Positions 1,512 to 17,925 of a DNA stretch of 64,000 nucleotides are shown here, piece by piece; position 1 is the first letter of the stretch; each line of letters opens with the position of its first letter. The stretch lies in contig OY762926.1 of assembly GCA_963666735.1 (NCBI GenBank), positions 2,656,001 through 2,720,000 of the forward strand, written 5' to 3'. Below the pieces are notes generated by a model that was not told the DNA's origin, did not search any database, and was given only the letters and a program-made list of their open reading frames with translations. A program made the position numbers and the translations under genes. Source of the stretch: Gemmatimonadota bacterium. GTDB taxonomy: Bacteria; Gemmatimonadota; Gemmatimonadetes; Palauibacterales; Palauibacteraceae.

Positions 1512-1573
1512 GTCTTGCGCAACCACGCCCATATGGCTAAAGGTTTCGGGAGATAGTCCCCTGACCCGGGAGG
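1512..1573 (+). promoter_or_regulatory. Conserved upstream element of Cys-rich peptide cassette (copy 1)
   Basis: GTCTTGCG-N16-GCTAnnGnTT-N9-AGTCCCCT-N4-CGGGAGG. The same blocks with identical spacing of the first three occur at 15559-15624. Confidence 0.7.
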
Positions 1574-1578
1574 ACCAA

Positions 1579-1818
1579 ATGTTGCGCCTCAAGTCGTTCC
1601 TTCGCCCGCCTCTGTACCTCTTGCTCCTCGTGCTCGCGCTTCCGGTTACCGTGCGGGAAGTTACCGCCGCGAACCTGCTGGACTGTGAATCCCAGTGCTC
1701 GCACATGAGCGCGATAGTGTATCGGGAAGCGCTGGACGACGGCCACACTCCTACAGGTGCCAGAGCCATAGCCCGGCGTGCGTACAACAGGTGTATGAAA
1801 AACTGCGGCCCCGAATGA
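1579..1818 (+). CDS. Small secreted Cys-rich peptide (signal peptide + CX3C-X31-CX3C)
   Basis: GGGAGG RBS; hydrophobic signal ending ...EVTA; four Cys as CESQC and CMKNC; stop overlaps next start (ATGA). Confidence 0.8.
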   Translation: MLRLKSFLRPPLYLLLLVLALPVTVREVTAANLLDCESQCSHMSAIVYREALDDGHTPTGARAIARRAYNRCMKNCGPE

Positions 1819-2912
1819 GATACTGCGGCCGCTTCGTGACAGGCCGGAGCCCGGCGCTTATCGTCCTGCTCACCACTGCCTGTGGTGGGCCGGGCGATTT
1901 GCCCGCCCCCCAGTACGTCGAGCCCATCGCTTCCACGGAGGTCCCGGCGAGTCTATCCCGGTCACTTGTTCTGCTTGAAGGCGGTATCGCCTGTGTAACA
2001 GAGACGTACTGGCACCGCATCGTCTGTACGCATCCCCGTGGCGAATCGCTTGCGTTCGGCACGAAGGGTGAGGGTCCGGGCGAACTCCTTTTCCCCGAGG
2101 TCGTGTTACGGGCACAAGACGGGATGATCGGTGTGCTGGACACCGAACTGCACCGCCTGTCTCTGTTCACGGAAGCGGGCGAGTTCGTGAAGGCCACATC
2201 AGATTTTCCTTTGGGGTTCCGTGGATACGAGCGGAAGGTGGTAGGGGAGACGTTAGTCGGCTCCTATCGCGATCAATCGCGGAATCTGATGTTCGCGGAG
2301 ATTGAGTTAGCGACGGGTCGTGTCCTTCGGGAGCGGATTTTTCCCCTCGAGAACGATGTTGTCGACTGCTCGACGCAAAGTGCGACAAATAGGCGGCTTA
2401 GCGCTGGATACTCAGGATCCGACCGAAGCCTCCTGTTCGTAGCGTGCCACGGTGAGTTTCTGGTGTGGTACGCCGACCGTAAGGATGCGGAACCGGCGGC
2501 CATCGTCCGATCAACCTACGTTGAGCGGTATCCGTCCGACCGTGAAGTGGCCTCGGTTGTACGTACGCTGCAAACGGAGCCCTGGATTGCCACTAGCGAA
2601 GAAGAGGTAAGGGCAACACCCAAGGTTTGGTACGGGCCGAGGGTCGTGGATGACAGGGGACGGTTCTGGGCGGTGTCGCGCTGGGAGTATCTTGAAGACG
2701 TGATTCCGCGTACGAGCTACATCGATTTGTTCGACCTTACGAGCGAGGGTCCACGGTACGCGCTCACGCTGGAGTTGCAGGACAAGGTGATCGGGATGGA
2801 TGTCCTCGACGATACGCTTGCCGTCCTCGTTGAGCGTGATGCTGGCAACGTGCAAGCGGAGCGGCGCGTGGACTGGTACGATATTTTGACCGTGGGTGAT
2901 CTCAAGTTTTAG
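1815..2912 (+). CDS. 6-bladed beta-propeller lipoprotein (NHL/TolB-like)
   Basis: Lipobox-like LLTTAC; FGTKGEGPGEL; VDDRGRFWA; ATG at 1815 coupled to peptide stop. Confidence 0.85.
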   Translation: MRYCGRFVTGRSPALIVLLTTACGGPGDLPAPQYVEPIASTEVPASLSRSLVLLEGGIACVTETYWHRIVCTHPRGESLAFGTKGEGPGELLFPEVVLRAQDGMIGVLDTELHRLSLFTEAGEFVKATSDFPLGFRGYERKVVGETLVGSYRDQSRNLMFAEIELATGRVLRERIFPLENDVVDCSTQSATNRRLSAGYSGSDRSLLFVACHGEFLVWYADRKDAEPAAIVRSTYVERYPSDREVASVVRTLQTEPWIATSEEEVRATPKVWYGPRVVDDRGRFWAVSRWEYLEDVIPRTSYIDLFDLTSEGPRYALTLELQDKVIGMDVLDDTLAVLVERDAGNVQAERRVDWYDILTVGDLKF

Positions 2913-5202
2913 CCGAGGATCGCGCGTGCGCGCGGACGTCGGCTACGAGTCGCCCGTGAGCGTCGAGCGGGTGAGACGGAAAGGCGGCGTGATTCTCCCA
3001 GGGCGAAATCTACGCCGCCACACTTTCGGTGCGGGGTGCGCTTCCGACCCCCCGGGGCTGGCCCGGGGAGAGAACGCCACGACTCGCGACCGGCCGCGAA
3101 GACGGAGTAAGTCTACCGCAAGGGCGGCGGTCGCTGCGGCGCTGTCTATGCCGATCGCCCTTGGAGGCCAGGAAATCCCCGCAGCGTCGGCCGCGGCTCC
3201 GCAGGCCGGGGTCTCCGATGGTTGGAACTCCGAGGCGGCCCTTCTCCTCATCGAGCGCGCGATCGAGGCGCGGCGGCACGCCTGGGCCGACAGTTCCCTG
3301 CAACGATTACGGGCCGACGTGCAGGGGCATGTCTACTACCTGGGCGACATCCTCGGGGAACGGCACGTCATCCGGGCGGACCAGCTCGCGCTGGATGTCC
3401 GCTGGCAGAACCCGGACCGGACGATGCAGACGATCGTCGGGCGCCGGCACGAACGCCGGCTGCCGACGACCATCCATTATCACCTCGACCACCTCTTTCT
3501 CGTCCTCGACAACTTCGGGGATCGGATCCGGCTCGGAGACGGCCTCGAGATCCGCAACGTGCTCCATCCCGCGGGGGCGGGCGCGCGTACGTTCTACGAA
3601 TACCGGCTCGCGGACTCGCTCGAGATCCGGCTCCGCGACCGAACCGCCCGGGTCTTCGAGTTGGAGGTCCGCCCGCAGGAAGCGACGGCCGCGGGCGCGG
3701 TGGGGTCGCTCTTCGTCGAACGGGAGACGGGGGCCATCGCGCGCATGCGGCTCACGTTCACCCGTGCCGCCTATCGCGATCCGCAGATCGTGCGGCTCGT
3801 CGTCGACCTGCGCTCGGCGCTGTGGGAAGGCCGTTACTGGCTGCCCGACGAGCAGGAGGTCGAGATCGCGCGATCGCTTCCGTGGTTCGACTTTCCGCTC
3901 GAGACGCTGATCCGGACCCGCCTCCGCGTCCTCGACTACGAATTCGACGAGGAGGCGCTCTTCAGCCTGGGCGCCGGCCAGCTCATCTACAGCTATCGCG
4001 AGGAGGAACTGGCCCGCTTCGATGCATGGGAAGACCCGCTCTACGGGGGGCCCCTCGAGGAGGGAGGCGCCGACGGCGATCCGGAGGCGGCGGTCGCGAA
4101 GGCCCGCGAGCTTCTGCGGCGGCAGACGCTGCTCGGCGGCCGACGCTGGCAACTCGCGCTTCCGAACGCGTCGGGGGGAATCCGCGCGCGGCGTTCCGAG
4201 GGCCTGTTCATCGGGGCCGGCGGCGCCTACCGGCCGGACGATCTCACGCGGGTGTCGTTCGGGGGCGGCCACGCGGTCGGGGCGGCGCGGCCCCAGGCGA
4301 GCCTCGGAGTTCGGCGCCGGCTGGGAGGGGTCGACATCGAGATCGACGGGTGGCTCAGGACTCATCGCGACGCGGGACCGACCGCGGGCGCGGGGGTGCT
4401 GCGCACGCTCGCGCTCCTCGCCGAGGGAGAGGACTACGAGGACCCGTACCTCGCCACCGGCGGACGGATCGGGATCGCGCGCCGCGGCGGCCCCGTGCGC
4501 TGGCGCGTGGGCGCGTCCTTCGAGAGCCACGAGCGGGCGGATCTCGTCGTCGGGACCGAACTGTTCGGCGACCGGCCGCTTCGCCCCGTGCGTCCCGTCG
4601 ACGAGGGGGAACTCGCACGGCTCGATGCGGGCGTGACGGTGGACCTCGCGAGCGGCCCGGGCGCGCGCTGGGGGCTGGAACTCGCGGGCGAAGCGGCGGC
4701 GAGCGGCGTCGGGAACTTCGGCTACACGCGCGCCACCGTCGCGCTGCGGGCCGCCCGCGGCGGCTCGGACGGCGCGTGGGACTGGGCGAGTGGCGTGGAA
4801 TTCGGTCTCGCCGGCGGGGAGTTGCCGGCCCAGCGGCTCTTTCTGCTCGGCGGACGCGGTTCGCTGCCCGGCTACGAGTTCCGCGGCTGGGGCGGGGACC
4901 GCATGGCGCTGTGGCGCGCCGAGGTGTCCCGCGCCATCGCCTCCCCCTGGGTGCGGTTGCGCGCCGTCGGCGCCATCGGCTGGGCCGGACTCGGGAGCCC
5001 GGGGGAGGACGCCGCCCGCCGCTTCGGCGTGAGCGGAACCGAGGGGCTGCGCGCCTCGGCCGGAGTGGGCCTGGGCCTCTTCTACGACATCCTACGCCTC
5101 GACGTCATGCGCGGCCTGCGCGGCGGTCCGGCACCCGACGGGAGCGAAGGGAACTGGGTCGTCCTCCTCTCCGTGGACCCCCGATTCCTCAGGATCCTGT
5201 GA
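2896..5202 (+). CDS. Large exported/outer-membrane protein with C-terminal beta-barrel-like region (start uncertain, probably downstream of 2896)
   Basis: Signal-like AAVAAALSMPIALGGQ; C-terminal LPAQRLFLLGGRGSLPGYEF...GVGLGLFYDILRLDV resembles Omp85/BamA-type barrels. Confidence 0.7.
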   Translation: MISSFSRGSRVRADVGYESPVSVERVRRKGGVILPGRNLRRHTFGAGCASDPPGLARGENATTRDRPRRRSKSTARAAVAAALSMPIALGGQEIPAASAAAPQAGVSDGWNSEAALLLIERAIEARRHAWADSSLQRLRADVQGHVYYLGDILGERHVIRADQLALDVRWQNPDRTMQTIVGRRHERRLPTTIHYHLDHLFLVLDNFGDRIRLGDGLEIRNVLHPAGAGARTFYEYRLADSLEIRLRDRTARVFELEVRPQEATAAGAVGSLFVERETGAIARMRLTFTRAAYRDPQIVRLVVDLRSALWEGRYWLPDEQEVEIARSLPWFDFPLETLIRTRLRVLDYEFDEEALFSLGAGQLIYSYREEELARFDAWEDPLYGGPLEEGGADGDPEAAVAKARELLRRQTLLGGRRWQLALPNASGGIRARRSEGLFIGAGGAYRPDDLTRVSFGGGHAVGAARPQASLGVRRRLGGVDIEIDGWLRTHRDAGPTAGAGVLRTLALLAEGEDYEDPYLATGGRIGIARRGGPVRWRVGASFESHERADLVVGTELFGDRPLRPVRPVDEGELARLDAGVTVDLASGPGARWGLELAGEAAASGVGNFGYTRATVALRAARGGSDGAWDWASGVEFGLAGGELPAQRLFLLGGRGSLPGYEFRGWGGDRMALWRAEVSRAIASPWVRLRAVGAIGWAGLGSPGEDAARRFGVSGTEGLRASAGVGLGLFYDILRLDVMRGLRGGPAPDGSEGNWVVLLSVDPRFLRIL

Positions 5203-5232
5203 CGCCCCCACTGGTGCAGGAGCGTAGCCTCA

Positions 5233-5509
5233 TTGGCGATCCCGCAGCGGACGACCGAGTGTCGTACCGGAGCGGCCCGCCTAACCGCCGCCGAGCGCGT
5301 CGCGCTGACGGATGTGCTCACGAACGCTATCTTAGGCGGCGATGGCGACGGGGGCGGTCCTGGCGCGGAATCTTGCTCTGTAAACTGCAAGTTCGCGCAT
5401 GATGATTGCTCGGTTACCTGCCAGGATGGGTATTATGCTTGCTGCGACCACAAGTTTCTGGTTCGGTACCAGCTGTGGCTGCGAAGAGCAGACTCCGACC
5501 ATAATGTGA
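5233..5509 (+). pseudogene. Cys-rich peptide gene, 5'-truncated and carrying a +1 frameshift (or sequencing error)
   Basis: Reads ...GGPGAESCSVNCKFAHDDCSVTCQDGYYACCDHK. Removing one T from TTT at 5455-5457 continues FWFGTSCGCEEQTPTIM-TGA(5507-5509), just before the next gene. No signal peptide or RBS is visible. Confidence 0.65.
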
Positions 5510-5518
5510 GCGGTCCCG

Positions 5519-6676
5519 ATGATTATATCACCTATGAGGATACGGCGTTGGCTATGCGGTTGCGGCGCGCTCGGCGCGATGTGGAGCGGCAGTGCCGCAG
5601 ATCCCGCAAGCGCGCTCCAAGCGGAGTGGCATTTGGCGGTCGCGCCGGTCTCGGAGTTTGGCCTTCGGGAAGGGCTGCCGCTGCACCGTGTCACCGGCGC
5701 GGTGGTTCTAGCGGATGGCCGCCTTGTTATCGCCGACGCCGGGAACCACCGTTTGCTGCATGTCTCGGCACAGGGTGAGTTGGTTCGTACGCTCGGACGC
5801 AAAGGCGGCGGACCTGGTGAATTCGAGTCGATCACCGCTCTGTTCGCGACGGACACGACCGTGTTGGCTTACGACGCTATGCAGTCGCGCGTAACCGTGT
5901 GGAACCTCGACGGGAACCCCACAGTATATCGATTGCCGGCGCCGCAGCAGCGACCCACGGCACTTGCCGCCATAGCTTCCGCTTCGGAATGGATATTGAC
6001 CGGCAATGAACCCCTTGAGACCACGAGTAGGGGATTGGTGACGCAGGAGGCATCGATCCTAACGTACGATCCGGTGGAGGATCGGTCCGTGAGGGTGGAT
6101 CGCCGACCGGTGAGATACGGATACGTCAGGTGGAGCGGGGACCGCTATTCACAGGGGTCTACACAGTTCCGGATGGGCTTCCTGGGATCGGCTCACATCG
6201 CGGGGAAGGCCGGCAGATGGTTTTTCGTTCCTATCGACAGCGCGGTTGTGGAGATCCGCGATGCAACGGAAGAGGCGGACCCCACAAAGATGCACCTGCC
6301 CATGGAGAGCGGGCCCTACTCGGTGCGGAAACTGAGGGAAGCGCGAGACGGTCTCATCTCCATCTCTTCAAGTTCGCACGCGAACCGGCTCAGGCAAGTG
6401 TATGACGATGTGGAGAGGAACCTGCCGCCGCGGACGCCGCCCGCTCGGCGAGTGCTAATGCTTGGCGAGAGTCTGTGGGTTGAGCGGTTTGAGTCCCGTA
6501 CGGACGGCAGTTCTGTTTGGCTGGTGGTCGATCCGAGTGAGCGCAAGGTCTTGGCTACGGCAGTCATCGCGCCGGGAATCACTTTGCTCGGCGGGAACGG
6601 GAGCGTGGCGGTCGTACTCACGCGGACGGAGCTGGGGGAAGAGGTAGTGAGTGTTCGGTCGATCCTACGCCCCTGA
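5519..6676 (+). CDS. 6-bladed beta-propeller, exported
   Basis: DGRLVIADAGNHRL...LGRKGGGPGEF; C-terminal ELGEEVVSV; start 5519 or 5534. Confidence 0.85.
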   Translation: MIISPMRIRRWLCGCGALGAMWSGSAADPASALQAEWHLAVAPVSEFGLREGLPLHRVTGAVVLADGRLVIADAGNHRLLHVSAQGELVRTLGRKGGGPGEFESITALFATDTTVLAYDAMQSRVTVWNLDGNPTVYRLPAPQQRPTALAAIASASEWILTGNEPLETTSRGLVTQEASILTYDPVEDRSVRVDRRPVRYGYVRWSGDRYSQGSTQFRMGFLGSAHIAGKAGRWFFVPIDSAVVEIRDATEEADPTKMHLPMESGPYSVRKLREARDGLISISSSSHANRLRQVYDDVERNLPPRTPPARRVLMLGESLWVERFESRTDGSSVWLVVDPSERKVLATAVIAPGITLLGGNGSVAVVLTRTELGEEVVSVRSILRP

Positions 6677-6988
6677 GCACGCCGGGTTGGAGGTGCCCAG
6701 GCCGTCTCAACCGATCCAATAGCCGCCCCTCTTCGGACCTGCGCCTGTTCGTGGCCGGTGCGTTGAGACCGTTGGACCAACCTGGTCGAACACCCGACCC
6801 TCGCCGCCACCTCGGCGGGTGTTTGCCCGCTCCCGATTCAGTCCCCGGCCTCGAACCCGTACCGCTTCGATCAGGCTTCGTACGCTCCTCGCTGGCCCAT
6901 CGTGGCCGGGAGTCTTGTTTCCCCGGGCGGGCGATGTAAGGATTCACCGTGAATCGTTGTGTCTCCAGCTCTTGCTTGAGGTTCGCCC

Positions 6989-7621
6989 ATGAGTGACGCC
7001 GAGATCACGACCGAGACGCCAACCGGTCATTCCCGAAGGACGTTCATCAAGGGGGTCATCGCGACCGGCGCGGTGGTCTCCTCCTCCAGCCATCTCTTTC
7101 GGGCCCGGAGCCTGTCGGCCAGCGCCGCGGTGCGGGCGTCGATGCCCCGCATGATCTCGCTGAACGTGAACGGCGTGTCGCGTTCGGTGGATGTCATGCC
7201 GCAGGAGACGCTGGCGATGACGCTGCGCTACAAGCTCGGGCTCACCGGCACGAAGCTCGGGTGCGACCGCGCGGAGTGCGGTGCCTGCACGGTGCTCATC
7301 GACGGGGTCTCCCACTACGCGTGCTCGATGCTGACGAACGTGGTGCGCGACCGGTCGGTGACGACGATCGAGGGACTCGAGGGCGCGGACGGCACGCTGC
7401 ACCCGGTGCAGCAGGCGGTGATCGACGAGGGTGGATTCCAGTGCGCCTTCTGCGCGCCCGGCTTCATCATGAGCATGGTCGCGCTCACGAACGAGAATCC
7501 CGAGCCCACGCGCCAGGAGACGGCGGAGGCGCTCTCCGGCAATCTCTGCCGCTGCGGGGACTACAACAAAATCCTGAACTCCGCCATGCGTGCCGCCGAG
7601 TACGCGCGGCGCACGGTGTGA
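6989..7621 (+). CDS. Xanthine-oxidase-family 2x[2Fe-2S] subunit with Tat signal (PaoA/CoxS-like)
   Basis: SRRTFIK Tat motif; GTKLGCDRAECGACTV; QCAFCAPG; NLCRCG. Confidence 0.93.
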   Translation: MSDAEITTETPTGHSRRTFIKGVIATGAVVSSSSHLFRARSLSASAAVRASMPRMISLNVNGVSRSVDVMPQETLAMTLRYKLGLTGTKLGCDRAECGACTVLIDGVSHYACSMLTNVVRDRSVTTIEGLEGADGTLHPVQQAVIDEGGFQCAFCAPGFIMSMVALTNENPEPTRQETAEALSGNLCRCGDYNKILNSAMRAAEYARRTV

Positions 7622-7634
7622 GGGGAGGACGGTC

Positions 7635-10031
7635 ATGGCGCTAATCGGACAGGACATTTCGCCGCCGGATCTGCGCGCGAAAGTCACGGGACGAGCGAAG
7701 TACGCGGAGGACTTCCGGGCGGAGGGCATGGTGTTCGCCAAGCTCCTCCTCAGCCCCATGCCGCACGCCCGCGTGCGCAGCGTGGACGCGAGCGGCGCGC
7801 TCGCGATGCCCGGCGTGCTCGGGATTCTGCGGGCGAGCGAGGTCAACCAGCCCGACGCACCGGGCGAAGCCGCGCTCACGGATGAGCCGAAGTACGTGGG
7901 CGAGCCGATCCTCGCGCTGGCGGCGGTCGACGAGACGACGGCGGCGGACGCGATCGAGGCGATCGACATCGACCTTGAGCCGCTCCCCTTCGCGATCGAC
8001 CCGCTCGACAGCCTGCGGCCCGGCGGCCCGGACGCCCGTCTCGAGGGGAACGTGATGCGTGCCGGCGAGAGCGGGCGGGAATTCGTCTCCATGAAGTGGC
8101 CGCAGGCGGAGTTCGACGCGGCAGAAGCCGAGGGCCGGCTGCCGATGGGCGAGCCGGACTTCACCTGGGACCATGGCGACCTCGACGCCGCCTTCGACGC
8201 GGCGGACTACGTGCTCGAAGACACCGTGGTGCATCAGTCGCTGACCCACCATCCGATGGAGCCCCGCAGCTCCATGGCGTACTGGGACAACGGCCGCTGC
8301 TACCTGTACGGGTCCACGCAGAGCACGCAGCGCACGCACGGCGCACTGGCGGCGCAGCTCGACCTCGACCCCGAGAACCTCGTCTTCGTCGGACAGTACT
8401 GCGGCGGCGGCTTCGGATCCAAGATCGCCGGCGCCCCCATCTACCAGGTCACGGCCCTCCTCGCGAGGAAGATCCAGCGGCCGGTGATGATGCGGATCAA
8501 CCGCTACGAGGAAAACTACATCGGCCGCGGCCGACCGGGGTTCCAAGCTTGGACGAGGATGGGCTTCCGCAACGATGGGAAGATCACGGGGATCGATCTC
8601 TACATCGTGCAGGACCACGGACCGTACGGACGGTCCGGGGACTACATCCAGGCCGGGAACGTCGCCGACCTCATGTATCAGCCCGACGCGATGCGTTTCC
8701 GCGGCCTCACGCTCTACACGAACACCCCACCCCGGGCGGCGCAGCGGGGGCCGGGCGGCGCCCAGATCGTCGCCATGCTCGAGCCGCTCGTCGACAAGGC
8801 GGCGCGCGAACTGGGGCTGGACCGGGTGGAGGTCCGCAAGATCAACGCCCCGTCGCACGACTCCGAGTTCGGGCCGCAGCGGGCGACGACGACGAGCGCC
8901 TTCGTGCGCGAAGCGATCGATGCCGGCGCGGCGCAGTTCGACTGGGCCGGGAAGCAGGCGCTCAGCGGTCAGCGGAACGGTACGAAAGTCACGGGGGTCG
9001 GCGTGGGCCTCAGCCCCTATGTCGGCGGTTCCTCCGGCTTCGACGGGCTCCTCCTCATCCGCCCGGACGGGAAGCTGTACATCCACCAGGGGATCGGGAA
9101 CCTCGGCACGCACTCGATGGCGGACACGGCCCGCGCCGCGGCGGACGAACTCGGGCTCGAGTGGGACGACTGCGCGGTCATCTGGGGCGACAGCTCGCAG
9201 CACCATCCATACAGCTCGGTGCAGGCGGGAAGCCAGACGATCCACGCGCACACGCGCGCCAACTACGCCGCCGCACTCGACATGAAGCGGAAGCTGCAGG
9301 AGGTCGCGACCGCCGCGCTGGGCGGCTCGGCGAGCGCGTACCGGGTCGGTGGCGCGCGCGTGACCGGGCCGGGGGGCTCCATGAGCTTCTCGCAGGCTTC
9401 GGAGCGCGCGATCGCCATGGGCGGCGAATACTCCGGCGAGGAGTTGCCGGAGGACATCAACGACTACACTCGGGCTTCCGCGACGCAGCTTGCGGGCCAG
9501 GGCCTGATGGGCGTCGCCCGGGACAACTTCTCGCACGAGGGTTCGACGTGGTCGTGGGTCATGGGCTTCGCGGTCGTCGAACTCGACACCGAGACGGGCG
9601 ATGTGCGGCTCGTCGACTACACGGGGTCGGCCGACTGCGGGATCGTGGTGCACCCGCGCAGCCTCGCGGCGCAGATCCACGGCGGCAGCGTGCAGGGCTT
9701 CGGCCAGGCGCGCAGCCAAAAGTGGGTGTTCGACCCGAAGTGGGGCGTGCCCTTCGCCCACCGGCTCTATACCGCGAGACCTCCCGGCATCCTCGACGTG
9801 CCGCTCAGCATGGACTGGGCGGCGGCGGGCGAGCCGGACCCGCAGACGCCGATCGGCGCCAAGGGGATCGGAGAACCTCCGGTCGGGGCCGGGTCCGCGG
9901 CGGTCACCTCCGCGATCGCGGACGCGCTCGGCGGGCGCTGCCTGTGCCGGATCCCGCTGACGACGGACGTGATCCTGGCCGAACTCGAGGGCCGGGCGCA
10001 GCCGCACGCACTCACCGAGATCCACAGCTAG
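7635..10031 (+). CDS. Xanthine-oxidase-family molybdopterin subunit (PaoC/XdhA-like)
   Basis: KVTGRAKYAED, GGGFGSK, AQRGPG, AKGIGEPP; GGGGAGG RBS before ATG 7635. Confidence 0.93.
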   Translation: MALIGQDISPPDLRAKVTGRAKYAEDFRAEGMVFAKLLLSPMPHARVRSVDASGALAMPGVLGILRASEVNQPDAPGEAALTDEPKYVGEPILALAAVDETTAADAIEAIDIDLEPLPFAIDPLDSLRPGGPDARLEGNVMRAGESGREFVSMKWPQAEFDAAEAEGRLPMGEPDFTWDHGDLDAAFDAADYVLEDTVVHQSLTHHPMEPRSSMAYWDNGRCYLYGSTQSTQRTHGALAAQLDLDPENLVFVGQYCGGGFGSKIAGAPIYQVTALLARKIQRPVMMRINRYEENYIGRGRPGFQAWTRMGFRNDGKITGIDLYIVQDHGPYGRSGDYIQAGNVADLMYQPDAMRFRGLTLYTNTPPRAAQRGPGGAQIVAMLEPLVDKAARELGLDRVEVRKINAPSHDSEFGPQRATTTSAFVREAIDAGAAQFDWAGKQALSGQRNGTKVTGVGVGLSPYVGGSSGFDGLLLIRPDGKLYIHQGIGNLGTHSMADTARAAADELGLEWDDCAVIWGDSSQHHPYSSVQAGSQTIHAHTRANYAAALDMKRKLQEVATAALGGSASAYRVGGARVTGPGGSMSFSQASERAIAMGGEYSGEELPEDINDYTRASATQLAGQGLMGVARDNFSHEGSTWSWVMGFAVVELDTETGDVRLVDYTGSADCGIVVHPRSLAAQIHGGSVQGFGQARSQKWVFDPKWGVPFAHRLYTARPPGILDVPLSMDWAAAGEPDPQTPIGAKGIGEPPVGAGSAAVTSAIADALGGRCLCRIPLTTDVILAELEGRAQPHALTEIHS

Positions 10032-10044
10032 GGGAGATAGAACG

Positions 10045-11043
10045 ATGGCCGTGATTCGCGACATGATGCCCGCGTTCGAGCTCTTCCAGCCGACGAGCGT
10101 GGACGAGGCGCTGGACGTGCTCGAGCGCCACGACAACACCTGGGTCCTGGCCGGCGGCCTCGACTCGATGGACTGGTTCAAGGACCGCATCAAGCGGCCC
10201 GACGTCGTCGTCGAACTGGGCTCCGTGAGCGAGCTGAGCGGGATCCGCGCCAGCGGAGACGGGCTCGAGATCGGCGCCATGACCTCGCTGCGCGACGTGG
10301 TGTCGAACGAGGAGGTGCGGTCCCGCTTCGGAATCCTCGCCGACGCCGCCGCCGAGGTGGCGACGCCGCAGATCCGGAACCAGGGGACGCTGGGCGGCAA
10401 CCTCATCCAGGACACGCGCTGCTGGTACTACCGGGGCGGGTGGCCGTGCTACCGCGCGGGCGGGAACATCTGCTACGCGGGGACGCCGCAGTCCATGAAC
10501 CGCGAGCACGCCGTGACCGGACAGAGCCGCTGCGTGGCCGTCAACGGGGCGGACACGGCCGGGGCGCTGGTCGCCCTCGGCGCACAGATGATGGTGCGCA
10601 GTTCGAGCGGCGAGCGCGTCTACGAGGCCGAGGACTTCTTCGTCGGCCCGGAGATCGACATCCAGCGCATGACCGTGCTGGAGCCGGGAGACCTCCTGAC
10701 GCACGTGCGCATCCCCGGCGACTGGGCGGGCGCGCGCTTCTACTGGGAGAAGGTCCGCGACCGGAAGTCGTGGGACTGGGCGCTGGCCAGCGTGGCCGCC
10801 GCGATCGTGGAGTCGAACGGCACGATCGAGCGCGCCCGGATCGCGATCAACGGCGTGGCCCCGACGCCCGTGCGGCTGACCGATGTCGAGCGCCTCGTAC
10901 AGGGGATGCCGGCGGACGACGACACCGGCATGGCGGCCGGCGAACTCGCCACGCGCGGCTTCAAGCCGCTGCGCCACAACGACTACAAGGTGCCGCTCGC
11001 GCGGAATCTCGTCCGGCGCGCGGTGCGGGGAGACATGGCCTAA
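10045..11043 (+). CDS. FAD-binding subunit with [4Fe-4S] insert (PaoB/HcrB-like)
   Basis: LAGGLD, PQIRNQGTLGGN, Cys insert RCWYYR..CYRAGGNIC..RC. Confidence 0.92.
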   Translation: MAVIRDMMPAFELFQPTSVDEALDVLERHDNTWVLAGGLDSMDWFKDRIKRPDVVVELGSVSELSGIRASGDGLEIGAMTSLRDVVSNEEVRSRFGILADAAAEVATPQIRNQGTLGGNLIQDTRCWYYRGGWPCYRAGGNICYAGTPQSMNREHAVTGQSRCVAVNGADTAGALVALGAQMMVRSSSGERVYEAEDFFVGPEIDIQRMTVLEPGDLLTHVRIPGDWAGARFYWEKVRDRKSWDWALASVAAAIVESNGTIERARIAINGVAPTPVRLTDVERLVQGMPADDDTGMAAGELATRGFKPLRHNDYKVPLARNLVRRAVRGDMA

Positions 11044-11919
11044 ATGGAGATCCTCAGAACGGCGCCGAATCCCTGGGGCCAGGAGGTACTCGTCGGCGTC
11101 GCCTGGGATCTGCTCTGGGCCGCCGCCATCGCCGGCTTCGTGTTCGTGGTCGGACACCATCTATACGTCTGGATCATGGCGCCCAGGGCTCCGAAAAGCG
11201 CGCCGAAGGCGGCTCCCGAGGTGCCCGAGCGCGTGGAGCGCCACTCACAGGCGTCCCGGACGTTCCACTGGCTCATGGCGGCGACCATGCTCACGCTGCT
11301 CGTCACGGCGTTCTTCCCCGTGATCGGCGTCCAGTTCGCCTGGGTCACCATTCACTGGATCGCCGGCGTCGTCCTCACCCTCCTCATCATCTACCACATC
11401 ATCCACGCGACGACGAAACAGGATTTCTGGTCCGTGTGGACCGGGACGAAGGAACTCGGGCAGGCGTTCCAGGCGATCGGGAAGTTCCTGCGTCGCGAGC
11501 CGGCCAAGGAGGAGCGGTCCGGGAAGTACCCCCTCGACCAGCGCGCCTACCACAACGCCGTGACGCTCGTCTCGGGCGGCGTGATCGTCACGGGGATCCT
11601 CATGATGGTGGGCGTCGACACCTGGTTCTGGGCGAGTAATCCGTACTTCCTCGCCGACTCCACGTGGGGGCTCGTGTTCGTCATGCACGGGCTGTGCGGG
11701 GTCGGGCTCGTCACGATGGTCATCGCCCACGTCTACTTCGCCATCCGGCCCGAGAAGCGCTGGATGACCCGCTCCATGATCAAGGGCTGGATCACGCGCG
11801 AGGAATACCTCGAGCACTACGACCCGGACCTCTGGAAGCTGGGGACGGAGCCCGCCGGGGCCGAGTCGGCCGGAGGGAGCGCGTCGTCCGCGGATCCCGA
11901 CGGGGTCGTGCCCGCTTGA
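11044..11919 (+). CDS. Cytochrome b membrane subunit (formate dehydrogenase gamma-like)
   Basis: Multiple TM helices with His in RTFHW, IHWIAG, MHGLCG, IAHVYFA; SMIKGWI...EHY tail. Confidence 0.88.
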   Translation: MEILRTAPNPWGQEVLVGVAWDLLWAAAIAGFVFVVGHHLYVWIMAPRAPKSAPKAAPEVPERVERHSQASRTFHWLMAATMLTLLVTAFFPVIGVQFAWVTIHWIAGVVLTLLIIYHIIHATTKQDFWSVWTGTKELGQAFQAIGKFLRREPAKEERSGKYPLDQRAYHNAVTLVSGGVIVTGILMMVGVDTWFWASNPYFLADSTWGLVFVMHGLCGVGLVTMVIAHVYFAIRPEKRWMTRSMIKGWITREEYLEHYDPDLWKLGTEPAGAESAGGSASSADPDGVVPA

Positions 11920-12302
11920 GCCGCGAGGAGCTGAAGGCTCACATCGAGGTCCTCGAGAAGGCGTACGAGTTCCTCCTCTCCTACGCCGCGCTCGGCGCCG
12001 AGCAGGAGGAAGCCTCGAAGGTCGGCGGCCAGTTGCGGGAATACCTGAGCCGGACGGATGCCGCGCTCCGGGCGCTGGCGAACGACCTCGGCGGCCTCGT
12101 CGCGGCGGAGGGACTCGAGCCGGCCGGCGCCTACGGAGAGATGATCGGCGTCACGTCCGCGGACGCCGCCCGGGCCGGGGCCGCCGTGCGGCTGGTCCTC
12201 ACCCAGGAGACGATCAGCTCGCAGTTGATCGACAACCTCAACGCCTCCTCCCACCTGCGGGCGCTCCTCACCGACCTCTTCCTCCTCGACGACGTCGTCT
12301 GA
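11916..12302 (+). CDS. Conserved hypothetical helical protein, last gene of molybdoenzyme operon
   Basis: TTG overlaps the upstream TGA. Reads LSREELKAHIEVLEKAYEFLLSYAA...ISSQLIDNLNASSHLRALLTDLFLLDDVV with native codon usage. Confidence 0.75.
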   Translation: MSREELKAHIEVLEKAYEFLLSYAALGAEQEEASKVGGQLREYLSRTDAALRALANDLGGLVAAEGLEPAGAYGEMIGVTSADAARAGAAVRLVLTQETISSQLIDNLNASSHLRALLTDLFLLDDVV

Positions 12303-12312
12303 CCGAAACGCG
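12243..12312. repeat. 70-bp direct repeat, left copy (3' end and stop of the upstream gene)
   Basis: 68/70 identical to 13828-13897. Confidence 0.95.
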
Positions 12313-12348
12313 GCGGATTCGTTACCGCGTCTCTATCGCCTGAGTCCG

Positions 12349-13617
12349 TCAGGGGGTTCCGGCGCGGTCGGGGCAGTTGCGGTTGACCCGGTAGCGGTGG
12401 ACGTAGGGGACGCCGAATTCGCCGGGCGCCGTCGCCCAGACCTCGGTGCGACCGGCCCGGAGGATTCGCAGCCGCGGCTCCCAGTCTTTGTGGTCCGGCG
12501 GTCCCTCAATGCGCACCGAGCCCTCGAGTTCCCCGCCTTCAGCGTAGATCTCCCACACGTCGGCCGGGTCCGGCCACGCCTCGCGGAGGAGCCAGATCGA
12601 ACCGTCTCCGCCGGCCACGATCCGGCGCACGGGGGGATAATGCTCGGGAAAGGTGATGATTTCGCGTCCGATCCGCCGCTTGCGCCCGGGGTTGCCCGTG
12701 TCCCACGGAGACCCGCCCCGGGCCAGCTGGTCCGCCTTGAGTTCCCGCTGCAGCGATGCCTCGGCGCGCGTGACCGGCCGAGGTTCGTACGGGACCGCGC
12801 GATGGAGCAGGGTGTCGCCGTCGAACCGGATCTTCAGGAGATCGAAGCTCGCATCCGCCCGATCCTCCCTGACCTCCCCGATGAGGACGACGGCGGAGCC
12901 GTCCGGGGTCGCGGCAACCGGCAACCAGGACTCGCCCGCCCACGGACCGAGCGGATGCGAGGTCATCACTCCCCACCCGTACCGGTCCGTCTCGTGCTCG
13001 AGGGTGCGGGATGCCAGATGGCGTTCGACGATCGCGAGCGTGTCCACGACCTCGCCGGACGCCGAGACGCGGCGCAGGGCGGCCCGGTCGGCCTTCAGGA
13101 AGCGGTCCAGGTCCTCGTTCACGGTCCGGGAGGGCAGGAAGGCGCCGCCGGGTAGCGGCCTGCCGGGATTCAGGTTCGACCCCTCCTCCGGAAGCCGGAT
13201 CCGGAAGCTCACGCGATCGATCTCGGACCCATCGGCCGACAGGAACTGCGTACCGAGTCTGTGGCTTATCCACAACGTATCCCCCAGCCAGCCCACTTGG
13301 CGGGGCGGCGCGGGGAACTCGCCGGGTCCCTGGCCCTCGCGTCCGATCGTGCCCGCGGGTCGGCCGTCCGGCCAGAAGACGCGGATGGGATCCCAGGACT
13401 GGAGGAGGTACACTCTGCCGTCGGGCCCGATTGCCAAGTCCCGCACATAGGTGAGGGCCCCGTCACCGTCCACGGACCCCAGACGGAGCGTCTCCTCCAG
13501 TTCCCAGGGTCGTTCGCACACTTCCTGCCCCGCGAGCGGAGCCGCACCGAACGCCACGTACCCAGCCGCGACGCCGACCAGGGCGGCCGCCGCGCGGATC
13601 CGGCGGAGGCGCGTCAC
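12349..13617 (-). CDS. 6-bladed beta-propeller, exported
   Basis: Signal (V)TRLRRIRAAAALVG...LAGQ; IGREGQGPGEF; DGSIWL; EFGVPYVHRYRV. Start uncertain (GTG 13617 preferred). Confidence 0.85.
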   Translation of the reverse strand: MTRLRRIRAAAALVGVAAGYVAFGAAPLAGQEVCERPWELEETLRLGSVDGDGALTYVRDLAIGPDGRVYLLQSWDPIRVFWPDGRPAGTIGREGQGPGEFPAPPRQVGWLGDTLWISHRLGTQFLSADGSEIDRVSFRIRLPEEGSNLNPGRPLPGGAFLPSRTVNEDLDRFLKADRAALRRVSASGEVVDTLAIVERHLASRTLEHETDRYGWGVMTSHPLGPWAGESWLPVAATPDGSAVVLIGEVREDRADASFDLLKIRFDGDTLLHRAVPYEPRPVTRAEASLQRELKADQLARGGSPWDTGNPGRKRRIGREIITFPEHYPPVRRIVAGGDGSIWLLREAWPDPADVWEIYAEGGELEGSVRIEGPPDHKDWEPRLRILRAGRTEVWATAPGEFGVPYVHRYRVNRNCPDRAGTP

Positions 13618-13827
13618 GCGCCGGCGTGCCGGGCGGCGAGGACCCCGGCTTCCAGCGAGACCTGGCTCATTGCGAGCGTCTCCCCCCCCCCCGCGGCGTC
13701 CAGTGGTCATATGCATCCACGGCGTCACCTCGTGCCCTCGGGTTTCGGCGACGCGCACGGGCCAGCAGGTCCAAGGGTCCGGGTCGTCCCCAAGCCCGAT
13801 GATGAGCCCCGGGCGCGACAGTCACAA

Positions 13828-13897
13828 GCCTCGTCCCACCTGCGGGCGCTCCTCACCGACCTCTTCCTCCTCGACGACGTCGTCTGACGGAAACGCG
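13828..13897. repeat. 70-bp direct repeat, right copy
   Basis: GCCTCGTCCCACCTGCGGGCGCTCC...GTCTGACGGAAACGCG, 2 mismatches to 12243-12312. Confidence 0.95.
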
Positions 13898-13957
13898 TCA
13901 ACACTCCTCCCCGAGCGGCATCAGCCTGGTCAGGTTCGGCTGCCGATCCGCTGATCA

Positions 13958-14004
13958 TTGATCGACCAGTCCCGATGGCATAACGTTGCACCAATTGATG
14001 CCAT
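13958..14004 (+). promoter_or_regulatory. sigma70-type promoter and operator of vapBC
   Basis: TTGATC-N17-TAACGT (13958-13986), overlapped by inverted repeat ATGGCAT(13975)...ATGCCAT(13998). Confidence 0.7.
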
Positions 14005-14029
14005 GAAGTGAATGCACAGGGAGCGACCG

Positions 14030-14275
14030 TTGAAAACCCTCACCGTACGGAAGATCCCTCCGGAACTTGCCCGCGCGCTGGATGCCGAAAAGCGACGCCG
14101 AGGCCGGTCGCTCAACCAGACCGTCATCGATCTCCTCCGCCAGAGCCTCGGGGTCGGGAGACGGAGGTCCAACGGCCTCGCGCGGTTCGCCGGCGACTGG
14201 ACCGAGGAGGAGTACCGGGAATTCAAGGAAGCGACGAGGGTGTTCGAGGAAATCGACGAGGAGATGTGGCGGTGA
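14030..14275 (+). CDS. Ribbon-helix-helix antitoxin (FitA/VapB-like)
   Basis: LKTLTVRKIPPELARAL...SLNQTVIDLL; acidic tail; GTGA overlap with PIN gene. Confidence 0.85.
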   Translation: MKTLTVRKIPPELARALDAEKRRRGRSLNQTVIDLLRQSLGVGRRRSNGLARFAGDWTEEEYREFKEATRVFEEIDEEMWR

Positions 14276-14667
14276 CTCGCTACTGCCTGGACACGTCGGC
14301 CTACAGTCGTTTTCGTCGCGGGCACCGCCGGCTGGCCGAGGTGCTGGACTCGGGCGCGTGGATCGGTGTGCCCGCGACCGTGATTGGCGAGTTGCGCTAT
14401 GGCTTCCAGGTGGGCGGACGCCGGGCGTACAACGAGGCGAAGCTGTCGGACTTTCTTGCCAGTCCGGCGGTCGAGGTGCTGGAGGTGAATGAGGATGTGG
14501 CGGCGTGTTACGCCGACATCGTGGCGGCGTTGCGCCGGGCCGGCACACCCGTACCCGCGAACGACGCCTGGATCGCAGCCTGCGCGGCGCACACCGGTTC
14601 AACGGTGCTCACCGCAGACGCGCACTTCGAACGCATCCGGCGCATCGGCGTTCTCACGGTCTCGTGA
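14272..14667 (+). CDS. vapC: VapC PIN-domain toxin
   Basis: LDTSAY...VIGEL...NDAWIAA...TADAHF: all four acidic PIN residues present. Confidence 0.92.
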   Translation: MTRYCLDTSAYSRFRRGHRRLAEVLDSGAWIGVPATVIGELRYGFQVGGRRAYNEAKLSDFLASPAVEVLEVNEDVAACYADIVAALRRAGTPVPANDAWIAACAAHTGSTVLTADAHFERIRRIGVLTVS

Positions 14668-14679
14668 GCCGCCTCGGGG

Positions 14680-15387
14680 TTATCCTTCCGTGCGGGTGAA
14701 GGTAAAGGTGCCGATGGGTTCGTCGGAGAAGGGAGTCACGCCCCGCAGGCTGTGAATCGGTTCCCTCGGCTGGGTATCGTCGTTGGCCGAATTGTAGGAA
14801 GGCCCGCTGTCCGTCCCCGCGTCGTAGGGGTAGAGGACGACCTCGAGTTCGCCGACCCAGTTGCCCGCGGCGTCGCGCAGCGGCAGGTCCGACACTCCCA
14901 CGAACCAGTCCGGGCTCGGGGCAATCATCGTGACGAGGGTGACGAGCGGGAAGTCCTCGCGAAGCGTGACCGCCTGAATCGTCGTGCTTCCGGGACTGCG
15001 GATCCCGGACCCGTTGATGACCGCCAGCGCGTTCGCCGGGATTTCGGCCCGGATCTCATTCGTCAGAGCACTGGTGCTTCCGGTTTCCGCCATGCTCTCG
15101 ATCCCCGGCGTGGCGGTGCCCTCCGGTGCCCAGAAGGTCGCGTCTTCGTCGTGCACGGCGCCGATCAGCGGCGAGAAGTGCGCCCCTCCCGGGAAGTTGG
15201 CCGGGTGCGTGGAGGCACTCCACGTCGCCTCGAAGACCACGCGGTACGTCGCCGTGGTCGCCGTTGCCGGGGGCGGCTCCGGGTCGGGCCTCGGCGCCGG
15301 GTCGGTCCCGGCGCCGCCGCACGCGAGCGTGGCGAGGACCGCAACCGCCAGCGGTCCGATCCAAGTGTTCGAGAACGTCGGCAACAT
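14680..15387 (-). CDS. Spondin_N (F-spondin/mindin-like) domain lipoprotein
   Basis: Lipobox-like LATLAC; HFSPLIGAVH, MIAPSPDWFVGV, LYPYDAGTDSG. Confidence 0.9.
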   Translation of the reverse strand: MLPTFSNTWIGPLAVAVLATLACGGAGTDPAPRPDPEPPPATATTATYRVVFEATWSASTHPANFPGGAHFSPLIGAVHDEDATFWAPEGTATPGIESMAETGSTSALTNEIRAEIPANALAVINGSGIRSPGSTTIQAVTLREDFPLVTLVTMIAPSPDWFVGVSDLPLRDAAGNWVGELEVVLYPYDAGTDSGPSYNSANDDTQPREPIHSLRGVTPFSDEPIGTFTFTRTEG

Positions 15388-15440
15388 TGGGTTCACGGTG
15401 GCTCTAACCCGTGAAGTCCCGCCAGGTTCCGGCGGCAATC

Positions 15441-15473
15441 TCAGGCTTTCGCGTGCCAGGCGGAGTGAGCCTC
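15441..15473. repeat. Degenerate copy of the 3' end of the epimerase gene (17926-17958)
   Basis: TCAG-N6-GCGTGCCAGGCGG-N6-CCTC in both places, 24/33 ungapped. Minus strand reads AWHAKA* versus AWHARV*. Confidence 0.65.
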
Positions 15474-15558
15474 CGTCTCTCGCTTGGCGGGGCAACCGAC
15501 CTGGGGCTCCGCAGGTAATGAGGGAATCAACGTAATTCCGATACCGATACTCTCAGTA

Positions 15559-15624
15559 GTCTTGCGTAGAGTAGCATCACGTGCTACGGCTTCTTCGAGC
15601 GAGTCCCCTTCCAATCTCGGGAGG
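15559..15624 (+). promoter_or_regulatory. Conserved upstream element of Cys-rich peptide cassette (copy 2)
   Basis: GTCTTGCG-N16-GCTAnnGnTT-N9-AGTCCCCT-N8-CGGGAGG; matches 1512-1573. Confidence 0.7.
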
Positions 15625-15631
15625 CGCCAGA

Positions 15632-16120
15632 ATGTCCTGCTTCAACTACTTCCAGAGGTCCGCAGTATTCGTCACGCGGGTCGTCGCCCTGCGGGTGCCG
15701 TCTGTCACCGCCACCACGCCGGGAGCACCGCTGTTCCGCCGAATCGTGGCCTCGGTGCTCGTTGCCACGATAGCAGTTCCTTCGCTGGCAAATGCTCGCG
15801 AACTCCCCGAGGACGAGGGACTGGAGCACGCTCTGCCACCCGCGGCAGCTCCCGTTGCCCAAGCGGGCATGAGTCTCAACGGCTGCCCTTCGCTAAACGG
15901 AGTCCCCGGGGCGGGAGGCTGCGTGACGGTGTGGCTGACGTGGGACGTCGCCATGAGTACGCCGGGCCCCGTCAGCGTCACCATCACCTTGCTCGAGCGT
16001 CGGATCGAATGTGTAAGCTGCGACTGCATATGGACCTACGAGGACAGCAATGGGCATCTGCGGCTCTTGCGGGACACGTGGCTTGACTGCGGAAGCAGCC
16101 ACGACGACGACTTGATGTGA
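15632..16120 (+). CDS. Small secreted Cys-rich protein (long leader, 6 Cys in mature part)
   Basis: GGGAGG RBS; RRIVASVLVATIAVPSLANA signal; GCP..GGC..ECVSCDC..LDC; GTGA overlap with next gene. Confidence 0.75.
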   Translation: MSCFNYFQRSAVFVTRVVALRVPSVTATTPGAPLFRRIVASVLVATIAVPSLANARELPEDEGLEHALPPAAAPVAQAGMSLNGCPSLNGVPGAGGCVTVWLTWDVAMSTPGPVSVTITLLERRIECVSCDCIWTYEDSNGHLRLLRDTWLDCGSSHDDDLM

Positions 16121-17264
16121 AGTCGATTCTCCGAAATGGCACGGTCGCGGTAGCACTCACGTTCCTCGCGGTGGCATGTGGGGACGGGGGCGGCGAGGTG
16201 GATCCGATAAGGGTGGCCGGATACCGCGTTTGGATACCCGGCCCGCTCGTTGAGCGGTACCCCCCGGACCCACACGACCTTCAGGCGGAGGACATCGTTG
16301 AAGGCGGCCTGGATCTTGCGGTGGGTGTAGGGGAGGGGGAAGGGATATACGTCCTCGATGCGGGGGCGAGGCACGTCCTGCGCCTGGACGGTGACGCAAC
16401 GCTGCAAGCCGTGATCGGCCGTCCCGGTGGTGGCCCCGGAGAGTTAGGAGCGCCGGTCTCGATCGAGGCGGACCTGCGGGGTGGTGTTTGGGTGGCGGAC
16501 AGGCAACACCATCGGCTGTCGCGCTTCGATTCAGACGGAGAACTCCTGGAGGAAACGCCGGTACCCTCGACGGTGCGTGGCTTCACGGTGCTGCCGAACG
16601 GCACGTTGCTGTACCGCAAGTTTGAGAACGGGGTGGCCACGCTGGCGCTGCACTCGGGGCGAGGGGCCGTGGATCTAGCCGCGGATCTTCCGGCGGAGTT
16701 GGCGCCGCAGGACTTGGCCTCCTACCTGGCTGAGTACGACCTTGAGTTTGCAGTGCTCGCCCCGGACACCGTCATCGCTTTCCGGAATTCGGGTCTTCGC
16801 GCCTACGGGGCATGGCGGATGGCGCTCGACACCTCGTCAGCTCGGATCACCGACATCGCCCGGGTGCCCATGCCCGTTTGGCTCTCAGAGGCGATTCGCG
16901 CCCAAGCGGAGGAAATCGAAGCATCCGCCCCCGAACGGGCCGAGGGATTCCGCCATCCGCTCGCAGATCGATCATCCCGTTCTCCAGGGGCGCGCGTATG
17001 GCCTCAGGCGATTTCTGGATCGTGCCGCATGTCATCGGCGGCACCGTGACTGCCACGACGATCCCTCTCCTGTCGGGCGATTCCGTTACCATCGTCCTAC
17101 GGTCGAGACCCTTGCGGGAGATAGATCGTTGCAACGGCAAGGTGGACTATGCGGTGTTCGGGGAAAGGTTGGCGATGCTCTGCAGCGACGAATTGCGCGT
17201 CTATGCGTTGCAGCGCGTCGAACCGGAAAGGTTGCCATTCGATACGAACCCGGCTGACGGGTGA
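16117..17264 (+). CDS. 6-bladed beta-propeller lipoprotein, frameshifted near 16945
   Basis: Lipobox FLAVAC; IGRPGGGPGEL; VWVAD. C-terminus continues in the 16812-17264 frame (GDFWIVP...ELRVYAL), whose stop overlaps the next start. Confidence 0.75.
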
Positions 17265-17920
17265 GGGAGGACCGGCTCCCAACCCGAACCCTCCCCCTCT
17301 ATCGGCGTCTTCTGCTGCTGCTCTTGAGACCGGGGCGTCTCTTCACGATGCTGCGGGAGGAACCCGTTTGGAAGGATGCGCTCGCGTGGCAGGTTCTTCT
17401 TGGCGCGCTGCTCTCCATCGCAGCGGCCATCGACACGCTCCCTCGCGTCTTCGAGTTCGGATCCGTGGCCCCGGTCGCCAGCCTTGCGACCCTTGGCATC
17501 GCCGCGGGGCTCGCCGTCTTGGTGGCCAGCCTCGCTGTTCCGCTGTTCTACGCTTCGGTGGCGGCCGTCCTGTTCATCGGCGTGAGATTCGTCATGCGGT
17601 GCGCCGTGTCCTTCGCCGAGATCTTCAGCGCCACGGTGCATGCGGCGTATGTCCTGCTCCTGGGCAGAATGATCACGTCGCTCCCGCCTCTTTCCGGGGC
17701 ATCTCTCATGGGCCCTCCGCAGCTTGGCTTTCGGCAACCCGCTCCCGACACCTCTTTCGGACCCTTACTGGTCGCGGGAGTCGTGGAGGCAGCGTTCTTC
17801 GCGCTGTTGGGCGTTGCGTTATGCCGGGTTTGTGGCCGTCGCCGGGTCGCCGTGGCGGCTGCGTTGGGAATTGCACTCTACGTGGCGACTATCGCGCTGA
17901 CGTTCGTGTTCCGGCTTTAG
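17261..17920 (+). CDS. Yip1-like multi-pass membrane protein
   Basis: LLLRPGRLFTMLREEP N-terminal motif, about 5 TM segments, GTGA coupling. Confidence 0.7.
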   Translation: MREDRLPTRTLPLYRRLLLLLLRPGRLFTMLREEPVWKDALAWQVLLGALLSIAAAIDTLPRVFEFGSVAPVASLATLGIAAGLAVLVASLAVPLFYASVAAVLFIGVRFVMRCAVSFAEIFSATVHAAYVLLLGRMITSLPPLSGASLMGPPQLGFRQPAPDTSFGPLLVAGVVEAAFFALLGVALCRVCGRRRVAVAAALGIALYVATIALTFVFRL

Positions 17921-17925
17921 AGTCT

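Follow-up and report, generated by a model that had tools for sequence, protein, structure and literature searches.

The window analysed here, a stretch of 64,000 nucleotides (positions 2,656,001 to 2,720,000 of contig OY762926.1), belongs to the genome of a sponge-associated bacterium of the phylum Gemmatimonadota (a single contig of 3.98 Mb with a guanine–cytosine (GC) content of 68%), and this DNA is present in several sponge metagenome runs. The window has four genes for β-propeller proteins (B1, B2, B3 and B4), three of which are preceded by the coding sequence, complete or in part, of a small cysteine-rich peptide. An initial annotation proposed that such peptides and propellers form coupled, diversifying pairs. 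The peptide–propeller system is real, and it is undescribed in the literature searched. The features are collected in Table 1.

Table 1. Features of the peptide–propeller cassettes and their borders, numbered from the first nucleotide of the window
Feature	Position	Strand	Description
Peptide 1	1579..1818	+	79 residues, hydrophobic signal, mature part about 54 residues, CxxxC...CxxxC; predicted two-helix hairpin; intact
Propeller B1	1815..2912	+	365-residue predicted lipoprotein, NHL-like six-bladed β-propeller; predicted binder of peptide 1; intact
Decayed IS3-type element end	2939..3004		Borders cassette 1 on the right; 8 copies in the genome match it at 81%
Peptide 2 remnant	5233..5509	+	Cys-rich C-terminal domain of a secreted protein family of about 225 residues; signal and N-terminal part absent; frame broken near 5452
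Propeller B2	5519..6676	+	385 residues, above the DUF5128 (PF17170) cut-off; intact, unlike its peptide
128-residue gene, 3′ end	12243..12312	+	Conserved gene; first copy of a 70-nucleotide direct repeat
Propeller B3	12349..13617	-	422 residues; peptide-less here; elsewhere, members of its sub-family go with an 8-Cys peptide, some also with a DsbA-like gene
Seam	13614..13897		Three stubs of the epimerase-like gene (17926-19047), then a repeat of the 128-residue gene's 3′ end
Peptide 3	15632..16120	+	162 residues, signal, low-complexity linker, 6-Cys core with variable hairpin-like segment; intact
Propeller B4	16117..17264	+	Predicted lipoprotein; in this strain, frame interrupted near 16943 and open reading frame stops at 17049
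Yip1/YknW-like membrane protein	17261..17920	+	Overlaps the end of B4; third, coupled gene of cassette 3

All four propellers contain the motif G-x-x-G-x-G-P-G-E and are otherwise very divergent (the best pairwise BLAST E value is 1e-5), the three peptides have unrelated cysteine patterns, and B3 has no peptide at this locus, all as first described. The pairing is real and extends throughout the genome, but of the three pairs that the initial annotation recognised only the first is intact. In this pair, the two open reading frames (ORFs) lie where they had been placed, with an ATGA overlap, and GGAGG precedes the ATG of peptide 1. The stretch taken as the ORF of peptide 2 is not a single frame: the frame from 5233 ends at 5778, the final two cysteines lie in another frame, and neither a signal peptide nor a ribosome-binding site was found for the remnant. 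In cassette 3, peptide 3 and the overlap at 16117 are as annotated, whereas B4 does not run in one frame to 17264.

The frames were checked in independent short-read contigs of runs X1 and X7 and in a contig of run X9 (another strain). Near 5452 and near 16943, the X1 and X7 contigs carry the same letters as the window, so that both breaks are real alleles and an assembly error is ruled out as their cause; the X9 contig has a one-base insertion or deletion at each.

A close relative of cassette 2 was found in 1 among 121 genomes, in which a signal-peptide protein of about 225 residues with a similar Cys-rich tail lies before the propeller; thus, the window keeps the tail of peptide 2 alone. 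In the peptide 2 family, the N-terminal part is conserved, the Cys-rich tip is more variable, and there are tandem paralogues, four of which (P0103-P0106) lie together on one 12-kb contig. Judged by its homologues, peptide 2 is the tail of a 225-residue signal-peptide protein, and a reading of peptide 2 as a double-glycine precursor of a ribosomally synthesized and post-translationally modified peptide (from the ILGG before its core) was rejected. At the right edge of cassette 2, a stretch of 134 nucleotides (6769-6902) has copies of about 80% identity, six in genome G013 and one each in G017 and the host genome, and is possibly a small mobile repeat. In strain X9, there are many differences in the signal region of B2 (5513-5569), the remainder of the cassette being almost identical.

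In the scan with the profile PF17170, B2 passes the gathering cut-off of 22.9 bits with 26.4 bits, and B4 remains below it with 12.2 bits. There is no Pfam match for B1 or B3, and weak matches were found in just 4 of 67 relatives of B1. The third gene of cassette 3 matches the Yip1/YknW-like profile NF052650 at 24.5 bits, far under the cut-off of 110, the NCBIfam scan giving sub-threshold matches only. This gene lies behind 9 of 13 B4-family propellers, which are the nine closest ones, including those that are peptide-less; it accompanies the close B4 clade more steadily than the peptide does (9/9 of the closest loci), and may be the actual resistance or relay component.

Pairing of peptides and propellers across genomes

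Genes of the host genome were called with a simple custom codon model, and an iterative search gave 89 ORFs, each matched by three or all four of the window propellers. Seven of these look like other NHL proteins or fragments and were removed, leaving 82 family propellers. Peptides were recognized by a fixed filter (a start codon, a hydrophobic segment, and at least four cysteines after this segment), which is blind to remnants, to two-Cys peptides, and to peptides that have a DsbA-like gene between them and the propeller. An exported Cys-rich small ORF lies just upstream of 17 of the 82 family propellers, compared with 2 of 1495 other genes for proteins of 250–600 residues (p 4e-21) and with 3 of 265 genes of low GC content at third codon positions (p 3e-9 against the propellers). 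Seen from the side of the peptides, 39 small ORFs of the host genome pass the filter, and 17 of them are directly upstream of propellers. The enrichment check that had been proposed thus came out in favour of the pairing.

The pairing is also one of family with family. Relatives of B1 are preceded by a CxxxC...CxxxC peptide at 11 of 23 places, with no family peptide upstream at the other 12; relatives of B4 by a CxxCxC peptide at 5 of 13 places (7 being without family peptide and 1 untestable); and relatives of B3 by an 8-Cys peptide, in part together with a DsbA-like gene, at 3 of 13 places (10 having none of the family). B2 goes with the 225-residue peptide family. Each of the four window propellers is in a sub-family that goes with one particular peptide family, unrelated to the other three. 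In the reverse direction, a search with the peptide 1 family led to a B1-family propeller, intact or broken, behind the peptide at 13 of 13 places, of which 4 were new to both the seed set and the propeller search. A search with the peptide 3 family found a propeller behind the peptide at 18 of 20 loci, the other two stopping at a contig edge; outside the seed (16 loci), 14 of 14 testable loci have one. At one peptide 3 locus (L111, G046:C1:1917836-1920650), four tandem paralogous peptide genes are followed by a single propeller.

Among pairs of peptide-1-family genes with more than 60% identity, the ratio of nonsynonymous to synonymous substitution rates (dN/dS) is 0.13-0.67 (9 comparisons), which indicates that these are real genes. 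In one clade of relatives of B1, in which the upstream peptide is lacking, dN/dS is 0.21-0.42 (21 non-independent pairs), and 4 of 13 genomes with B1 have no match to peptide 1. There is thus an asymmetry: the peptides nearly always have a propeller, while about half or more of the homologous propellers are peptide-less, and those tested are under purifying selection.

In the host genome, all six propeller pairs that match each other at more than 300 bits have related peptides, and one pair of related peptides has unrelated propellers. Across the phylum, 73 of 151 genomes have a match to PF17170, and a Cys-rich small ORF was seen upstream at 3 of the 29 top PF17170 loci outside the host genome (judged by eye, the loci being unselected). 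Those homologues of B1 and peptide 1 that carry names are from Candidatus Palauibacter or Gemmatimonadota, and a scan of metagenomes (JGI) with B1 gave 1 locus in 58 stretches.

Several other arrangements were seen in the host genome. Modules in which a DsbA-like gene stands between peptide and propeller lie at 2420532-2422558, 2414673-2417131 and 2942088-2944345, one of them apparently being a thioredoxin-like/propeller fusion; DsbA-like genes are linked at some host-genome loci and at none of the window cassettes. At 2382507-2391171 (L013), seven tandem propellers, with no peptides seen, lie behind genes for an extracytoplasmic function (ECF) sigma factor and for unannotated and HEAT-repeat proteins. 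Propellers of another clade (1473333, 2499028 and 2887779) are preceded by small proteins that are PDZ-like by eye, not by Cys-rich peptides. A secreted protein with four cysteines (163729-164211), the middle of which is cationic, amphipathic and rich in Gly, Ala and Lys, is bacteriocin-like by eye; its gene stands alone, with insertion sequences on either side and no propeller in the vicinity.

A predicted complex and a variable pocket

The model of B1 has a predicted local distance difference test (pLDDT) score of 72.6, and the top rows of a Foldseek search with it are NHL domains (E about 2e-9, template modelling score 0.47-0.57 by query), as expected of an NHL-type six-bladed β-propeller. 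Mature peptide 1 was modelled as a two-helix hairpin (pLDDT 86), for which a fold search returned generic helical hairpins only (best Z 7.9) and no specific structural relative. Sequence searches of the PDB with both peptide alignments gave nothing below E 0.5; in the ESM Atlas, peptide 3 had no usable match and a relative of peptide 2 had one lead, of 0.78. In the peptide 3 family, the 21 segments that lead from the second cysteine to the third are 12 to 29 residues long, many alternate polar and apolar residues, and they have at most 6 charged residues; as read from these sequences, a membrane-inserting hairpin or pore is a weak lead.

The modelled complex of peptide 1 with B1 scored 0.80 (median of three runs), compared with 0.01 for the best control, the controls being unrelated proteins and not sister propellers. 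The runs share at least 92% of contacts, with a partner pLDDT of at least 77. The mark set for this score is reached by 116 of 157 solved and by 2 of 215 mismatched pairs, and these counts hold only roughly for the alignments used here. The best-defined predicted contacts are those of the hairpin tip (residues 27-33 of mature peptide 1). It is highly probable that a propeller binds its own peptide family.

Among 56 relatives, the 39 predicted contact positions of B1 have a conservation of 0.50, compared with 0.73 for other loop and helix positions and 0.81 for strands, so that B1 varies most in the predicted pocket; Y273, G274 and G213 are invariant contact residues. Nonsynonymous divergence (dN) at the predicted contacts is 0.24, as opposed to 0.10 and 0.07 elsewhere (six disjoint pairs), i.e., about 2.4 times the 0.10. 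As far as the modelled contacts define it, this is what a specificity pocket carried by a conserved scaffold would show, but it does not prove positive selection. The columns shared by at least 50% of the 82 propellers are mainly Gly, Pro, Asp, Trp and apolar residues, with several Asp, Glu and Arg, and none is His or Cys; thus, what the family shares looks like a scaffold. For catalytic or metal-binding residues of the kind conserved in propeller enzymes (lyase or lactonase type), the Asp, Glu and Arg columns would be the candidates.

Gain and loss of the cassettes

As had been noted, the cassettes sit at gene ends, each starting at or close behind a gene junction. They were also said to be AT-rich, which is so for cassettes 1, 2 and 3 (61.4, 63.0 and 64.5% GC, flanking genes having 69-73%) and not for the lone propeller B3 (71.1%). 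The proposed comparison across strains bore out the expected variation in presence: cassettes 1 and 2 are missing at the same sites in 5 of 5 aligned congeners (12 had a long match to the gene between them), and cassette 3 is missing in all 6 aligned congener loci, in 3 of which an orthologue of B3 lies directly behind the epimerase-like gene. In strain X9, the block of stubs and repeat sits between the spondin gene and B4, and the front of peptide 3 is missing. The seam would therefore be the trace of recombination at the conserved flanks, by which two alternative alleles of a single variable site came to lie one behind the other, head to tail.

The IS3-type element, the end of which borders cassette 1, has Pfam rve and HTH_Tnp_1 matches in its genes. 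No repeat family common to the cassette edges was found, and so there is no sign of an integron-type recombination site. The variable site also holds a FitA/PIN toxin-antitoxin pair (14012-14667), which is present, partly deleted or absent in congeners, and a gene for a Spondin_N lipoprotein (14680-15387).

Function of the modules and known systems

The initial inference, that each peptide family has a cognate propeller in a diversifying and mobile system, gains from the enrichment, the family-to-family pairing, the binding model and the fast-changing pocket. Of the functions that such cognate binders could have, toxin and immunity protein is favoured, with a probability of roughly 0.4. In this case, a mobile two-gene module would encode an exported, likely disulfide-bonded mini-protein together with its own six-bladed propeller. 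The peptide would be exported by the Sec pathway, form its disulfides (sometimes via the linked DsbA-like gene), leave the cell by some route, and harm neighbouring bacteria that have no matching propeller; gripped in the predicted variable pocket, it would be neutralized by the propeller as its immunity protein. Orphan propellers would be retained as protection against the peptides of other strains. Toxin-immunity loci typically have the peptide-then-partner order, gene overlap, lipoprotein partners and orphan partners. Toxin and immunity protein is ranked first on the grounds that the peptides are almost never propeller-less, although propellers do persist without peptides, and that the order of the genes and their turnover are those of such loci.

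Several observations weigh against this preference. No known toxin domain was found in the peptides by profile, PDB or fold searches, and no dedicated exporter was seen among the 134 neighbouring genes scanned, so that the peptides may stay in the periplasm. Of the peptide cores, 13 of 17 are net acidic (-4 or beyond), from which typical membrane-active antimicrobials differ. The window has an intact peptide 3 ahead of a broken B4, and another genome (G010) has an intact peptide before a truncated propeller; in both, a paralogue may cover for the broken propeller (the host genome has a paralogue of B4, 58% identical, elsewhere). Four intact-looking peptides of the host genome have no propeller directly behind them, and a large propeller clade there (13 rows in a tree of 80 propellers, a quick tree with long branches that was relied on for close clades only) is without any peptides. 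The tracking of peptide similarity with propeller similarity follows from co-duplication alone. The dN/dS of the pocket is about 0.7, i.e., below 1, and relaxed constraint fits its variability as well as positive selection does. The acidic peptides, the missing exporter and the tolerated break in B4 are better explained by a carrier, host-directed or signalling role.

The propeller could be a carrier, folding aid or display partner that matures, shields or delivers the mini-protein, or the peptide could cap a propeller that is itself directed at a surface molecule, either of the host (sponge) or foreign. Any stable complex would suit the complex model, at several host-genome loci a DsbA-like gene separates the peptide from the propeller or forms a fusion with the latter, an intact peptide 3 with a broken B4 would be harmless, and the fold is NHL-like, an NHL-domain protein of a sponge symbiont being, in the accessible part of PMC13747020, among those tested for effects on uptake by sponges. 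A pure chaperone without client should decay, however, whereas the orphan B1 clade is under purifying selection, and a sponge-only role is doubtful because pairs occur in other families of the phylum (the 3 of 29 unselected loci above). Such a carrier or host-directed role is considered unlikely, if the strongest competitor. Only slightly less probably, the peptide is a strain-specific signal or mark of kin, the propeller its periplasmic receptor, and the orphans listen to other strains. The same asymmetry and the same variable pocket would follow, acidic peptides fit, the membrane protein of cassette 3 could relay the signal, and the row of seven propellers follows the gene for an ECF sigma factor and two further genes, unannotated or with HEAT repeats; against this, there is no regulator or kinase in any of the four window cassettes, and the propellers share so little beyond scaffold residues that a common transducer-binding face is not evident.

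It is very improbable that the genes merely hitch-hike together without physical or functional link, with the propeller family being the real feature and the peptides passengers in insertion hot spots. About 65 of the 82 propellers are peptide-less by the automatic filter, and the sites gather other cargo (the toxin-antitoxin pair and the spondin gene), as such passengers would; yet the start/stop overlaps, the four separate family-to-family pairings, the near absence of peptides without propeller and the complex model all speak for a link.

If toxin and immunity protein is correct, the peptides would be antibacterial mini-proteins of a new class, all countered by one antidote scaffold; if the propellers are receptors, the pairs would form a novel code of peptide signalling. 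In both cases, a single type of propeller would accommodate unrelated folds (a helical hairpin and Cys-rich β cores), which is relevant to binder design and to competition in sponge microbiomes. A testable job is thereby offered for a protein family that, with about 82 copies here, ranks among the largest unannotated expansions of these genomes, together with many new families of disulfide mini-proteins overlooked by gene callers and Pfam. Perhaps, and with somewhat less assurance than the favoured function itself, the Gemmatimonadota (and probably other phyla too) have a greatly expanded and so far undescribed system of conflict: each of dozens of unrelated disulfide mini-protein folds would be caught by a dedicated propeller with a hypervariable pocket, the scaffold would serve as a general antidote or receptor library, and strains would collect orphans as protection.

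No description of the peptide–propeller pairing was found in the open-access papers searched, nor of a partner peptide for the DUF5128/NHL family in the searchable literature. The accessible passages of the Palauibacterales paper (PMC10469786) do not deal with propellers, NHL, ribosomally synthesized peptides of the above type, bacteriocins or cysteine, and those of PMC12419801 have nothing on a peptide–propeller system. Of the propellers described here, B2 is above the DUF5128 cut-off and the model of B1 is closest to NHL domains, whereas B1, B3 and B4 are under this cut-off and tied to B2 by the iterative in-genome search only. In Bacteroidota, small NVEALA (PF14055) proteins lie beside TolB-like propellers. 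That arrangement is similar in that a small secreted protein with cysteines immediately precedes a lipoprotein with a six-bladed propeller; however, PF14055 matches none of the 29 peptides here and none of the three window ORFs, and so the NVEALA label of the initial annotation is not retained.

Bacteroidetocins are small disulfide-bonded peptide toxins of Gram-negative bacteria, linked to a thiol oxidoreductase and a membrane protein; according to the accessible passages of PMC6671954, which mention no propeller, they have double-glycine leaders, a peptidase-ABC exporter and no immunity protein. The peptides here differ in having hydrophobic signal peptides, and neither a peptidase-ABC gene (among the 134 neighbours) nor a double-glycine leader was found that would place them with bacteroidetocins or class II bacteriocins. 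From polymorphic toxin-immunity loci, the present modules differ by the mini-protein size and the propeller partner, and by having no known toxin domain and no secretion-system marker. They resemble these loci in their coupled pairs, rows of second genes and strain-level turnover, and in a second gene that is coupled behind the gene of the putative effector and is also found as an orphan; the conserved N-terminal part, more variable Cys-rich tip and tandem paralogues of the peptide 2 family may recall the conserved carrier region and swapped C-terminal toxin domain of such loci.

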